From Candidatus Aenigmatarchaeota archaeon (GTDB lineage: Archaea > Aenigmatarchaeota > Aenigmatarchaeia > QMZP01), in NCBI GenBank assembly GCA_043824495.1, contig JBDRSV010000005.1, positions 32,001 to 96,000 of the forward strand: 64,000 nucleotides of DNA, in the 5' to 3' direction. The translations under genes were made by a program, and so were the position numbers. Of this stretch, positions 51,946 to 60,564 are shown piece by piece. How positions within the stretch are numbered: the first letter of the stretch is position 1; every line of letters starts with the position of its first letter. A model generated the notes under the pieces. It did no database searches, was not told the DNA's origin, and worked only from the letters and a program-made list of their open reading frames with translations.

Positions 51946-54900
51946 TTACATACATGTCCATGTGTTTGTGTACTTATCATATTCACAGTCAGTTCCTTGG
52001 TCACCGTTTCCAGTGCTTGGAGATTCATCTGGTGTTGCAGTTATATACTCCCAATTAGTTTCACATCCATATAATGCATTACATCCCCTTACAGCAAATT
52101 CATATGTATTGCTAGGGTTTAGACCATTGAATTCAACTTCATTTGGATAATCTTTATCAGGTAACGGTCCTGTTACACTCCAGGCGTCACCAACTTTTCT
52201 CATCTTAACCTCATAAATACTTGCTCCTCTACTACCCCAAGTAAGCTTTACTGACCAGATATCAGTTGTTGCAATTATGTTATTAACTGATGGTATGACT
52301 GATCCTTGGTTAAGTCCCTTTTTAATTGAAATATCATCTATGTAATTGAATGGTTGTGCATATCCTCCTCTGCTGTTTATATTTGTTTTTACTGTTCCTG
52401 GGACATCATCTGACAAGCTATTCCCACTATGGAAATCACATGAATATTCAGCCCAGTCGCTTGTTGGGTAGACTTCACATCGCATAAGATTTTTCCATGG
52501 ATTTGGAGATTCAGGTCTTCGTCTCTCTACCCAGAATAACTGAGTTGATCCATTTAAAGGATCTCCTTTCTTTGCCCAGAAAGAGAATGCATAATCTGTG
52601 TCTGCTTCAAGTACAATGTCGTGTTGCCATGGCTCCCAACTATTTACACTCTGCACGCAATAATCTCCTGTATGGCAGTCTGTATCTACACCATCTTCTG
52701 CTATGAATGCTGAATCATCTGCAGGTTCATTTACCCATCCCCAGTTCTCTACGTTATTACCATTTATTGTTTCAAATCCATGGTTCAATACATAATTCTG
52801 CTCAACAGTGAATGTTCCTGGAGTAGCAGCAGAACAATCGCCTTGTGAGTCACAAACAAATGCATAATACTGGTTAGTTCCAATATCATCTTCTGTTGTT
52901 GTGTAAATGCATGTGGAAGGACTTGTACCATCTAGAGATGATTCACACCAATCACCGCCTGTACAAAAAGCAGGTGCTCCAGGAGTGATAGCATTTGTTC
53001 TGCAAATATGAGCTCTTACCAAATCGGTTGGGTTATCGTCTGTCCAATCAGTAGTAAATGTAATAACTTCTCCTATGCTTACACTATTAGGATTTTCTGT
53101 AACGCCTACAATTGTAGGAACAATATTTAACTGTAAGAATTCATTCTCAACTATCATGTTACCCATTATATCATATACATAGTGATAGATAGCAACTATT
53201 TGTCCTGACGCCACATCTTCTACAGCCCTTCTAACTCTTAATCCGCTATAATCATAATCATAATACTCTTTTATGCCCTGTCCTGTTAAGTCTGCAGCTG
53301 CCATTCTATTTTCAGGATCATAAGTGAATACAGCTGATATACAATCAGGTTCTCCTGAACATACTTTTGTTTGTAGATTACCTCTCTCATCATACTGCAT
53401 GTTTATTACTGGAACACTTGCTGAAAGTACTTGTTTAAGTGCTTGACTGCTTCCACTAACCTCAAATGCATATTGGTATGTTTTTGTTGGTTCTCCTGCT
53501 CTTGTTTCATCTTGTCTGTTCCCTGCCTTATCATAATTATATGTCGCTTCACCAAATGGTGTATCTTCATAAACTAACCTATGTACATTATCATATCTGA
53601 ATTCTTTGTTTGGTTGTCCAGGTGATGTAATTGTCTCCACATTACCTACGTCATCATGTATGTATGACTCAGAAAAGTGTGTTGTTCCTAGTTTTGTTGT
53701 AACTACATCTGTGACCCAATCTCTACTTGGATGATAACTATAATCTGTTTGAACCGTGTTACCAAATGTTACCAAGTCCATTGTTCCTGTTGGGTTGTAT
53801 ATGATAGACGCAGAAAATGTTCCGTCCTCAATTCCTTCAACTTGACCAAATGCATTGTAAATATAACTAACTGTTACACCGCCTTCAGGATAAGTAATTG
53901 TTCTTATGGAATCTGATTCAGTGTATGTATATGTTGTTGTATATGTTCCTTCATTCATGATGTTTTTTGTTATTGAATCTAGTCTACCAAAACTATCATA
54001 ACCTAGTGTAGTTATTATTACATTGCTTCCAGATCCTTCTGTTATTGTGCAAAGTTTTCCAGAATGACATACATCATAAACAAAAGTCACATCCCTCCAA
54101 GGAGAAGGGTAATTTATTGTTTTTAATCTATCTAATTCATCATAAGTATATGTCATTGTAACGGTTCCGTGTGTTTTTGTTCTAGTGTTTCCATGATCAT
54201 CGTATGTGTAACCAATTGATCCAATATCTGGATTGGCAAATGCACTTAGTCTGTGTAGGCTGTCATAACCATAATCTGTTAAATGATTTTCAGCATCTGT
54301 GATGGTATCTATGTTATCAACTGCTGTATATAAAAAATCATTTTCATAATCGTAATTATTTCCATCTGTTGAGTTCTCTTTTAGAGTTACTATGTTTCCC
54401 CAACCATCAAAAGAAGACATTTTCCATTTATTTTCTTCATCCATTACCTTTGTGTATTCTTTTCCAGAACTATCTATACCATGATTTGTCTGAATCGTTG
54501 TAGAATCAGGGTTTGTTATTGTTGTTATTCTGCTTAAAGGGTCTCCAGCAATATATGAAAATACTGTACCTGCACCTGCAGTTTCTCCTGTTGCAGTTCT
54601 ATGAGTAGTTTGTATTCTTCCAGAAGTATCATAATCTGTTTGTGTGTTTATCTTTTTTGTTGCGTCTCCTGCATCTTGTATGACAGTTTTAAAATTTCTT
54701 CCATGTGCATCATAATATGATGTAGTAGTTGCATCCTTACCAGCAATAGAATCAATTATAGAAGTTGCTGTTACTGTTTCAGGTCCACTTTTTGATATGT
54801 CATATGTGTAAAGTATGTCCGGATTTTCACTAGTTCCCTCTTGTATAGCTTTCCACAATCTTCCATAGTTATCATATTCATATGTTGTTGTTGCGCCACC

Positions 54901-59295: not shown

Positions 59296-60564
59296 TTGAC
59301 CAGATCTCTTACATTAAATTTTGGGGATAGGAAAAAATTGTTAGCTGTAATTATAATTGCTTTTTTTGTTCTTTTCGTTTCCTTCAGTTCAGGATACGCA
59401 AGAGATTCCAACTTGATAAAATCAGTTGAAAAAATAAAACCTGTAAAACCAATAGATTCAAGGTTACAACTAGAAACTACTACGTCAACAGCAGTTAATA
59501 TACCTGGTTTTGAAAAAACTAATACTGTTTTTTTCTATACGGGTATCAAGAAAATAGCAGAAAAAACTAATGGTGTATTAAGCTATGCTCACGATGATAA
59601 CGTAGGGAATCTAATTTTGAAAACTGACTCTTTAGGAAATGAGCAACCAGGTTCAAGAGTTTCATACGATGCGTTTGGTTCAGCTGACTCAGATGACGCT
59701 AGTTACACTGGACATCTACTTGACAATGGAATCGGGATGTATTACATGAAATCAAGGTATTATGATCCTGATATTGGACGATTTATTAGTGCTGATTCTG
59801 TACCAGGTGACATAACAGATCCACAGTCATTAAATAGATATATTTACGTCACCAATAGACCAACAATTAACATAGATCCAAATGGAAAGCAACAATTCCC
59901 TAGTAATATTATAATTACTGGAGCAGACTCAGTTGAACAAGTTATGATTAGGGGCTCTTTGTATAGTGTACCCGATAGCTTCTTTAGCCCAACATCTCCT
60001 ACACCTGATACTATATATTTACATGTATCAGACTCGCTGGGTGGTGGTGCAACATTTACCACAGCTGGAAGCTACGGTCAGTTTACAGATAGTGCTAGTA
60101 TTCTACGTGATTTTTTGTTTAATGAAATAATTGATACTAGTGTAGTAATTCCACTTAGCGTGCCTTATGTCATAGATACAACTAAAGAAGTAGGTGCAGA
60201 AGGCGAAAGATTTTTAGTGCATGAATTGTATGCCCATTTTGGAGATAAGCCTTCAACTGACACTCTTCACACAGAAGTTAAATCTGCAATGGCATACATA
60301 GATGCTAATAATTTTATCTCTTCAGATTCATTGGCAAGAGATTCTTTAAGACAAGCAATATTAGTAATCTATGACGATTTACATACTGATGAAGCTAAAG
60401 CATATGATAAAGAACGCAACTTCGCAATTTATCAATTTAACCAAGGAAGAATAGATTCTACTACTTTATCTAGGGTATTACGAGAAACGGCATTTGATAG
60501 TGCAGCTACTGTTAACAGAGCAGATAGTCTAGGAAATTATTGGTTCAATCAAATTCCATATTAG
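59296..60564 (+). CDS. Signal-peptide-bearing RHS-associated core with a C-terminal HExxxH putative metallopeptidase toxin domain
   Basis: TTG start with GGAG SD; TM/signal; YAHDDNVGN, YDAFG, YTGHLLDNGIGMYYMKSRYYDPDIGRFISAD, LNRYIYVTNRPTINIDPNG; HELYAH. Confidence 0.88.
   Translation: MTRSLTLNFGDRKKLLAVIIIAFFVLFVSFSSGYARDSNLIKSVEKIKPVKPIDSRLQLETTTSTAVNIPGFEKTNTVFFYTGIKKIAEKTNGVLSYAHDDNVGNLILKTDSLGNEQPGSRVSYDAFGSADSDDASYTGHLLDNGIGMYYMKSRYYDPDIGRFISADSVPGDITDPQSLNRYIYVTNRPTINIDPNGKQQFPSNIIITGADSVEQVMIRGSLYSVPDSFFSPTSPTPDTIYLHVSDSLGGGATFTTAGSYGQFTDSASILRDFLFNEIIDTSVVIPLSVPYVIDTTKEVGAEGERFLVHELYAHFGDKPSTDTLHTEVKSAMAYIDANNFISSDSLARDSLRQAILVIYDDLHTDEAKAYDKERNFAIYQFNQGRIDSTTLSRVLRETAFDSAATVNRADSLGNYWFNQIPY

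Follow-up and report, generated by a model that had tools for sequence, protein, structure and literature searches.

A locus that probably encodes an RHS/YD toxin cocoon as three separately exported chains in a Candidatus Aenigmatarchaeota archaeon

Introduction

Can the shell of a single RHS/YD toxin be divided over several genes, with each product exported on its own, and still form one cocoon? This question is raised by three neighbouring genes, here termed genes 1, 2 and 3, within a stretch of 64,000 nucleotides from a Candidatus Aenigmatarchaeota archaeon (GenBank assembly GCA_043824495.1, contig JBDRSV010000005.1, positions 32,001 to 96,000; this whole stretch is referred to as the window). 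An original prediction, made from the DNA sequence alone, had claimed that the three genes jointly rebuild one RHS/YD protein: our analysis bears this out through the complementary domains of the pieces, the mapping of their break points next to each other and the existence of colinear fused relatives. We consider it likely that the locus encodes one toxin cocoon as three separately translated and separately Sec-exported chains; export, extracellular assembly, contact between genes 1 and 2, self-cleavage, toxicity and immunity are steps that we infer beyond the sequence-level complementarity of the pieces.

Results and Discussion

The gene 2 repeats stop where gene 3 resumes

The repeat region of gene 2 covers approximately 680 amino acids (aa) and is recognised by Pfam RHS_repeat (PF05593, 1.3e-11) and by TIGR01643 (1.7e-08); gene 2 also displays sequence matches to Tse5 and RhsA and has more than 1500 RHS homologues. 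As had been predicted, the YD repeats then stop: they end at residue 872 (..YVYDIMGNMIVENE), and a profile search detected no RHS core in gene 2. The core is instead located on a separate polypeptide, with Rhs_assc_core (TIGR03696) matching gene 3 residues 124-197 at 64.5 bits (cut-off 32.5) and residues 89-199 aligning to the core of TccC3. Gene 3 keeps both catalytic aspartates: D167, D194 and G197 are invariant in alignment A5, the DPNG motif occupies positions 194-197, and aspartyl self-cleavage of gene 3 can be anticipated from its sequence.

Gene 3 had further been claimed to resume at the next RHS element, and this agrees with both alignment and structure prediction. The consensus of full-length RHS proteins (alignment A4) has the closing element of gene 2 and the opening element of gene 3 in immediate succession. 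At the level of individual proteins, the positions that match gene 2 residue 872 and gene 3 residue 76 lie -21 to +25 residues apart in 13 of the 21 full-length RHS proteins that match both pieces, the other 8 being slips of the repeat register. Prediction of a complex between gene 2 residues 186-880 and gene 3 residues 60-205 gave an interface score (ipSAE) of 0.90 in 3 of 3 runs, compared to 0.00 for the best of 3 controls; the mark applied to this score is reached by 58 of 80 solved complexes and by 2 of 110 mismatched pairs. The runs share at least 91% of their contacts, with a partner pLDDT (predicted local distance difference test) of at least 87. The tightest predicted contacts place gene 2 residues 865-872 antiparallel to gene 3 residues 74-80, which is the strand complementation expected at the break; run on these two of the three chains, the multimer prediction that had been proposed as a check speaks for their pairing.

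Gene 3 could also be viewed as a stand-alone, small secreted self-cleaving toxin with a vestigial core, with genes 1 and 2 being YD-repeat surface adhesins that lie next to it by chance. Short proteins consisting of signal peptide, core and tip do occur elsewhere (P0011, P0012 and P0021), and the genome encoding P0011 is without a detectable RHS repeat, so that such proteins may not always need a shell: this observation counts against a three-chain cocoon. One such protein, of 475 aa (L001, 10001-11428, GCA_041739085.1), joins a signal peptide and an Rhs core to an alpha/beta-hydrolase-like tip; its genome has no RHS_repeat match, and it may represent either a shell-less use of the core module or an incomplete metagenome-assembled genome (MAG). 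The break points of genes 2 and 3 are exactly complementary, however, and the predicted interface is strong relative to its controls; moreover, each part is single-copy in the 80% complete source genome, with RHS repeats present in gene 2 only and gene 3 providing the sole Rhs core, whilst the synteny between the core-and-tip gene and the shell genes is kept in every archaeal locus examined. We judge a stand-alone toxin with chance neighbours to be quite improbable.

The gene 1 model matches the plug and first third of RHS shells

Gene 1 itself has no Pfam match, with SpvB remaining below threshold, although its relative P0089 matches Pfam SpvB (PF03534). An exhaustive search retrieved 531 relatives, most of which are long RHS proteins that share the N-terminal ~80 residues and parts of the region 420-900. 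In order to compare folds we used an AlphaFold2 (AF2) model (predicted template modelling score, pTM, 0.63), which is ordered outside of the Cys-rich insert. Foldseek returned TcB chains as top matches for this model with a probability of 1.0, and structural alignment using VIA-align gave matches to TcdB2-TccC3 (4o9x; Z 14.1, root mean square deviation (rmsd) 4.8, 507 aligned residues, model 40-1108 against chain 62-1084), to Rhs (8qjb_A; Z 16.4, rmsd 3.6, 349 aligned, comprising the N-plug and the first third of the shell) and to the N-domain of SpvB (6p0x_A; Z 12.5, rmsd 3.6, 227 aligned). The SpvB/TcB-like start that had been read from the sequence is hence recovered at the level of the fold. 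Type VI secretion system (T6SS) Rhs proteins are likewise covered over the N-plug and the first shell third (Z 14-16), and the ordered part of gene 1 comprises ~780 residues compared to the 1050 TcB residues spanned in the alignment. Gene 1 displays no FG-GAP, VCBS or PF12256 match and no propeller region.

The closest relatives of gene 1, P0085 and P0086, are ~45% identical and their matches reach to within 2-3 residues of the ends of both proteins; the Cys-rich insert at residues 103-422 is absent from these two homologues as well as from those in loci L005 and L013, and a C-terminal motif of gene 1 is common to L005 and L013. In other relatives the first two pieces are fused: in P0090 (1758 aa) a gene 1-like part (residues 23-571) precedes, in one chain, a gene 2-like part (865-1524), the latter matching gene 2 residues 206-871 (E 1e-88), and the same order of fused parts is found in L014 (2091 aa) and L045 (1770 aa). 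Direct contact between genes 1 and 2 would be expected from this arrangement. With regard to a closed shell with an N-terminal plug, the gene 1 model covers the plug and the first third of the shell, and the interface between genes 2 and 3 is the one predicted above.

The start of the gene 2 repeats leaves room for a second arrangement, in which genes 2 and 3 alone would make a small complete capsule (DUF6443-type start, YD repeats, core plug) and gene 1 would be a separate TcB/SpvB-like partner that docks on this capsule or on the cell surface. The repeat part of gene 2 starts where fused and bacterial relatives carry DUF6443, and due to this coincidence genes 2 and 3 may form a smaller capsule of their own, which weakens the case for a shell of three chains. 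A bacterial example is provided by locus L018 (8901-19837) from an uncultured Bacteroidota, in which a signal-peptide SpvB-like gene is followed by two genes that each encode a signal peptide and then open with DUF6443, followed by RHS repeats and core: judged from its sequence, the layout of this bacterial locus is B/C-like, with two chains that bear Sec signals. The modelled interface also concerns genes 2 and 3 only. Against such a capsule stands its size, since gene 2 repeats and gene 3 core add up to ~805 aa as opposed to ~1000-1070 aa in solved Rhs cocoons, and the fact that the part of these cocoons to which the gene 1 model aligns is precisely their N-plug and first third. Furthermore, fused relatives place the gene 1-like part directly before the gene 2-like part in one chain, and the C-terminal hairpin of gene 1 is strongly conserved among the split forms. 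A two-chain capsule with gene 1 as docking partner thus appears unlikely to us, and the shell of three chains remains the reading that we prefer.

The same break points recur in other archaeal loci

A search of archaeal genomes for the same break points, as had been suggested, recovered them in loci L005, L013 and L009-L012, and a separate core-and-tip gene in L007, L014 and L045. In L005 (GCA_053535475.1, beside archaeal ribosomal genes) and L013 (Candidatus Micrarchaeota), the shell is encoded by a gene 1-like gene and then by a gene 2-like gene with its own signal peptide; the accompanying signal-peptide gene 3-like gene carries the same start motif, is followed by a convergent open reading frame (ORF) of ~165 aa and lies upstream of the shell genes, inverted with respect to the window. 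L009-L012, which derive from four assemblies, show a four-way split: a gene 1-like chain, a gene 2-like chain and a third chain with 206 aa and about four YD repeats, all three of which have hydrophobic N-termini, and a separate chain of core and tip. The 206-aa protein of L009 (6205-6825) consists of a signal peptide and these repeats only, is located between shell gene and cartridge, and appears from its sequence to be a fourth piece of the shell. L007, L014 and L045 possess a fused shell and a separate signal-peptide core-and-tip gene that starts from the same element, with a small convergent ORF next to it in L007 and L014. Across these loci the shell is hence fused in some, in two pieces in others and in three pieces in one; the core-and-tip gene is always separate and always bears a signal peptide.

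These loci bear on the possibility that the pieces are decaying fragments of an ancestral RHS gene or an artefact of assembly or frameshift. RHS genes are often fragmented in bacteria and the source assembly is a MAG, which would favour such an origin. However, each piece has its own start codon, a Shine-Dalgarno-like motif and a signal-peptide-like N-terminus, all ORFs are long and intact, and the break points are kept at 27-45% identity over several independent assemblies and lineages. The recurrence of the same breaks together with new signal peptides in L005, L013 and L009-L012 argues that the pieces are neither frameshift fragments nor misassemblies, in line with what had been proposed from their domain content. 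We rejected misassembly and pseudogene formation on this conservation; decay or artefact is largely refuted and would now be very surprising. From the sequences, we regard the locus as a genuine and conserved variant of the RHS/Tc-BC cocoon that is made of several chains; it looks like a working modular weapon and not a broken gene.

N-terminal signals and Cys-rich modules

Each of the three genes had been credited with an N-terminal signal sequence, and all three N-termini do display the predicted features, with a charged n-region, a hydrophobic core of 13-17 residues and a c-region of small residues, as called by eye and hydropathy only. The predicted extra domains of genes 1 and 2 are present as well: 36 Cys residues are concentrated in the gene 1 insert (103-422) and 19 in a module of gene 2 (27-190), with almost none elsewhere, and gene 2 continues beyond its repeats as a tail that includes a CBM_4_9-like domain (24.5 bits, below the 25.9 cut-off) and fn3 (19.9 bits), both from Pfam searches on the fragment. 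Paralogues of the Ig-like gene 2 segments exist elsewhere in the source genome. The Cys-rich modules offer independent support for export of genes 1 and 2. In case of gene 3, export is argued for by the L013 (Micrarchaeota) homologue, since this contains a Cys-rich module between its hydrophobic N-terminus and the core. Taken from these N-termini and modules, Sec export of all three chains is to be expected.

Gene 3 and its small neighbour as a cartridge

Directly after gene 3 lies a convergent ORF of 162 aa, and a convergent small ORF is found 3' of the core-and-tip gene in 6 of 6 compared loci (159-178 aa in L005, L007, L013 and L014; 406 aa in L009). The small ORF co-varies with the tip family, in that related small ORFs occur only at loci with related tips (L005/L007 5e-7, L005/L013 weakly). 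The 162-aa ORF shows no similarity to the small ORFs of the other compared loci and belongs to no known family; in view of the co-variation with the tips, the convergent ORF is a candidate immunity gene.

Gene 3 had been described as an exchangeable cartridge, an idea that fits the conserved cores with their unrelated tips, the inversion of the cartridge in L005 and L013 and the two probable cartridges of one Micrarchaeota genome. The cores are 41-59% identical across six loci, whereas at least four unrelated kinds of tip occur. RHS repeats in the L013 genome (G302) are confined to the end of the L013 contig and the start of contig C37, which would join into one locus. On C37 a shell gene stops at the same break and is followed by a second cartridge and then by a co-directional ORF of 181 aa; the tip of this cartridge (L042, 3179-5225) is of a different kind, with a weak match to the Pkinase catalytic loop (23.3 bits, below cut-off). 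Two different cartridges probably flank one shell in this genome, and gene 3 with its convergent ORF fits, on the sequences compared, a swappable toxin-plus-protector cartridge.

The gene 3 tip has no Pfam match, and no homologue was found by whole-protein search or by BLASTP against the tips of the compared loci; a search with the L005 tip returned only the L005 tip itself. Feature-based leads from the atlas, to be taken as leads only, point to zinc peptidases M91 and M85 (0.86/0.84). HExxH is present in the tips of L005, L007 and L013; the gene 3 tip has HELYAH instead. We considered the gene 3 tip as a member of the family formed by those three tips, and dropped this reading as both a hidden Markov model built from them and BLASTP were negative. 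The gene 3 tip is a putative toxin.

Layout of the locus and its genomic surroundings

All three ORFs lie where the original prediction had placed them; the coordinates of all features are compiled in Table 1. Genes 1 and 2 overlap by one base, in agreement with the predicted TAATG coupling, with a Shine-Dalgarno-like AAGGTG 8-13 nt before the gene 2 ATG. Gene 3 is divergent from gene 1 at a distance of 199 nt and starts with TTG, with AGGAG 7 nt upstream.

Table 1. Features of the three-gene RHS locus, with positions in the window and the basis of each assignment.
Feature	Position	Strand	Basis
Gene 2, 1268 aa: signal peptide, Cys-rich module, core-less YD-repeat shell, C-terminal adhesin-like domains	51946-55752	-	ORF list; domain searches
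Gene 2 residues 873-1268: Ig-like region, CBM_4_9-like (985-1111), fn3 (1170-1226); expected outside shell	51949-53136	-	Pfam on fragment
Gene 2 residues 191-872: YD/RHS repeats, up to break point	53137-55182	-	RHS_repeat, TIGR01643
Gene 2 residues 27-190: Cys-rich module, 19 Cys	55183-55674	-	Cys count
Gene 2 residues 1-23: predicted signal peptide	55684-55752	-	translation; hydrophobic N-termini likewise in L005, L009 and L013 gene 2 homologues
Gene 1, 1114 aa: signal peptide, N-terminal plug strands of SpvB/TcB type, Cys-rich insert, first RHS-type shell part	55752-59096	-	ORF list; AF2 model, pTM 0.63; VIA
Gene 1 residues 423-1114: beta-sheet shell portion	55755-57830	-	fold; C-terminal end kept in split relatives
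Gene 1 residues 103-422: Cys-rich insert, lineage-specific, 36 Cys	57831-58790	-	Cys count; pLDDT <50
Gene 1 residues 40-102: conserved SpvB-like N-terminal hairpins	58791-58979	-	pLDDT 77-92; matched in >100 SpvB/RHS proteins
Gene 1 residues 1-25: predicted signal peptide	59022-59096	-	translation; hydropathy 3.7; by inspection
Divergent intergenic region gene 1/gene 3, putative promoters	59097-59295	.	A/T-rich TATA-like boxes, both strands
Gene 3, 422 aa: signal peptide and linker, final strands of the shell, Rhs core plug (Asp pair), tip	59296-60564	+	ORF list; profile search, alignments, complex prediction
Gene 3 residues 1-35: predicted signal peptide	59296-59400	+	TTG start with AGGAG; inspection/hydropathy
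Gene 3 residues 74-197: strands extending gene 2 sheet and Rhs_assc_core (D167, D194, DPNG)	59515-59886	+	TIGR03696; interface contacts
Gene 3 residues 198-422: tip (225 aa), with HELYAH	59887-60561	+	no Pfam match
Convergent ORF, 162 aa, hydrophobic lipoprotein-like N-terminus; candidate immunity or partner protein	60567-61055	-	ORF; co-variation of counterparts with tips

Gene 3 and the small ORF are bracketed by an imperfect inverted repeat of 23 nt (59234-59256 / 61070-61092, 74% complementary), both arms of which contain a TTTAAAT-like box ~45 nt upstream of a start codon. We set aside their interpretation as recombination sites on account of the complementarity of only 74% and the overlap with the TATA-like boxes; the two arms are, from their sequence and placement, probably twin promoters.

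The source genome comprises 1.01 Mb at 80% completeness and contains the archaeal ribosomal protein S4e, with no match to PF01280 (L19e) in this 80% complete assembly. Among 301 genomes of the phylum, the C-terminal part of gene 1 was found in the source genome alone and in none of the 300 others: as the gene 1 family is absent from these, the split RHS system is, by gene content, sporadic within the phylum and not a lineage trait.

Several neighbouring genes were also noted. Just downstream of the shell genes, a secreted protein of 1021 aa (48288-51353, minus strand) combines a transglutaminase-like core with CARDB and a C-terminal type I dockerin; dockerin copies are also present on contigs C5, C9 and C23, dockerin-like repeats end the shell proteins of relatives L007 and L042, and a Transglut_core gene lies near the L007 locus as well. 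The dockerin occurrences and the transglutaminase-like neighbour hint at a cohesin-dockerin surface assembly. Between this gene and gene 2, a stand-alone GIY-YIG nuclease-domain ORF of 88 aa (51480-51746, minus strand) may be the remnant of a mobile element. Further away, the minus strand encodes a compact type IB topoisomerase of 364 aa (42480-43574, Pfam Topoisom_I 5e-14), a type that most archaea do not usually have, and a 564-aa protein (40753-42447) with DUF5667, DUF4382 and Cys-rich Dickkopf/DUF7107-like modules, another probable surface protein by its domain content.

Comparison with known RHS and Tc systems

In a full-text literature search we came across no account of an archaeal RHS form that is genetically split and bears signal peptides, and the same holds for the three-way form that the original prediction had regarded as undescribed. 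The nearest single-chain architecture is that of the TcdB/TcaC-type RHS polymorphic toxins, in which signal peptide, SpvB, integrin-like propeller, RHS repeats and a polymorphic C-terminal toxin form one polypeptide, and which were reported in some Euryarchaeota as well as in bacteria (Zhang et al. 2012, PMC3482391). The system in the window likewise comprises signal peptides, SpvB, RHS repeats and a variable tip, but differs in the lack of a propeller and in its three exported chains. In the 80% complete source genome there was no match to TcdB_toxin_midN (PF12256), for which the control search was positive in Methanosarcina; the TcA partner (PF18276) gave no match in this genome either, a result that is uninformative as its control matched nowhere.

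The Tc BC complexes (TcdB2-TccC3, 4o9x; YenB-YenC2, 4igl) resemble the window system in building the cocoon from more than one polypeptide, in the SpvB-like N-terminus, in the C-terminal Rhs core with its Asp pair (the variable tip being enclosed in Tc) and in the use of alternative C-type subunits for one B-type subunit, to be compared with the two probable cartridges of G302. In contrast, the window system is split ~120 residues before the cleavage site instead of ~680 as in Tc, its three chains each carry a predicted Sec-type signal, its shell is decorated with Cys-rich, CBM and FN3 modules, and its host is an archaeon. As far as the sequences allow, Tc toxins are the two-chain precedent, and what is new here is the genetically split, signal-peptide-bearing archaeal form.

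T6SS Rhs effectors (RhsA, 7q97; Tse5, 8cp6; RhsP, 8h8a/b; Tse15, 8uy4) also have a YD-repeat shell and a core plug, and it is with their N-terminal plug that the gene 1 model aligns. Post-translational cleavage divides some of these effectors into fragments that do not separate; they are nonetheless single genes, loaded through VgrG/PAAR and secreted by the T6SS without signal peptides, whereas the window pieces are genetically separate and bear Sec-type signals. The enterobacterial orphan rhs core/tip cassettes are similar to gene 3 in being small genes of core end and variable tip that are followed by a small partner gene. Such orphans are not known to carry secretion signals, are usually without translation starts, and serve as recombination stock. 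Gene 3, on the other hand, has a Shine-Dalgarno motif, a start codon and a predicted signal peptide, and begins exactly at the stop point of the shell gene. The Bacteroidota loci with SpvB-like and DUF6443-RHS genes (L018) also show separate signal-peptide chains and several alternative core-bearing genes in a row, but their second chain keeps repeats, core and tip together, to which the archaeal form adds a split just before the core. With its conserved delivery part and variable C-terminal tips, the window system corresponds at the sequence level to the polymorphic toxin systems.

Proposed assembly and points that speak against it

In the mechanism that we propose, the N-terminal plug, of SpvB/TcB type, and the opening portion of the beta-sheet shell would come from gene 1; gene 2 would contribute the YD-repeat middle and the end of the shell, and beyond the break would run on outside it as a CBM-like/FN3 tail; gene 3 would supply the last two hairpins, an inward-spiralling Rhs core plug with the aspartyl self-cleavage site and a payload of 225 aa. 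The chains would join by beta-strand complementation after export with the payload enclosed, one end of the capsule being plugged by the N-terminal hairpins of gene 1 and the other by the gene 3 core. The core would then cut itself and the 225-aa tip would remain inside the capsule. The Cys-rich and carbohydrate-binding parts would project outward and hold the capsule on the surface of its target, be this a host or a competitor, and gene 3 together with the convergent small membrane/lipoprotein ORF would behave as a swappable toxin-plus-protector cartridge.

Besides the DUF6443 position and the repeat-less genome of P0011, other points have to be set against this mechanism. The halves of a split fold for which structures have been solved can pass complex prediction by likeness alone, and as RHS shells with their cores are solved, the high score for genes 2 and 3 may partly reflect likeness and is not proof of binding; the complex modelling moreover covered only this interface. 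The gene 3 tip is without a recognisable family, its HELYAH motif does not fit HExxH, and its AF2 model (4-row alignment, pLDDT 33.8) is unusable. The candidate immunity gene is convergent instead of co-directional and is without a detectable homologue. Finally, we know of no precedent in which a payload is enclosed once Sec export has taken place. In the current view, folding of RHS and Tc cocoons around the toxin occurs inside the producer cell, whilst pieces that cross the membrane unfolded would have to complete assembly, payload enclosure and self-cleavage outside of the cell.

Conclusion

Extended beyond this one locus, the comparison allows a tentative reading on which we are close to evenly divided, namely that DPANN-type archaea build a toxin-enclosing RHS capsule outside of the cell from two to four Sec-exported chains, with exchangeable or multiple payload cartridges that each bring a protector, and with lectin-like decorations that aim the capsule at the surface of a host or competitor. 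If true, it would be the first example of a payload that is encapsulated after having crossed the membrane, and how such a capsule folds and assembles would be a new problem. The capsule would also be modular by nature, with a fixed shell to which small cartridges of plug and payload are fitted. Little is known of how DPANN archaea interact with their hosts, and these loci would provide concrete candidates for surface weapons or host-manipulation factors.

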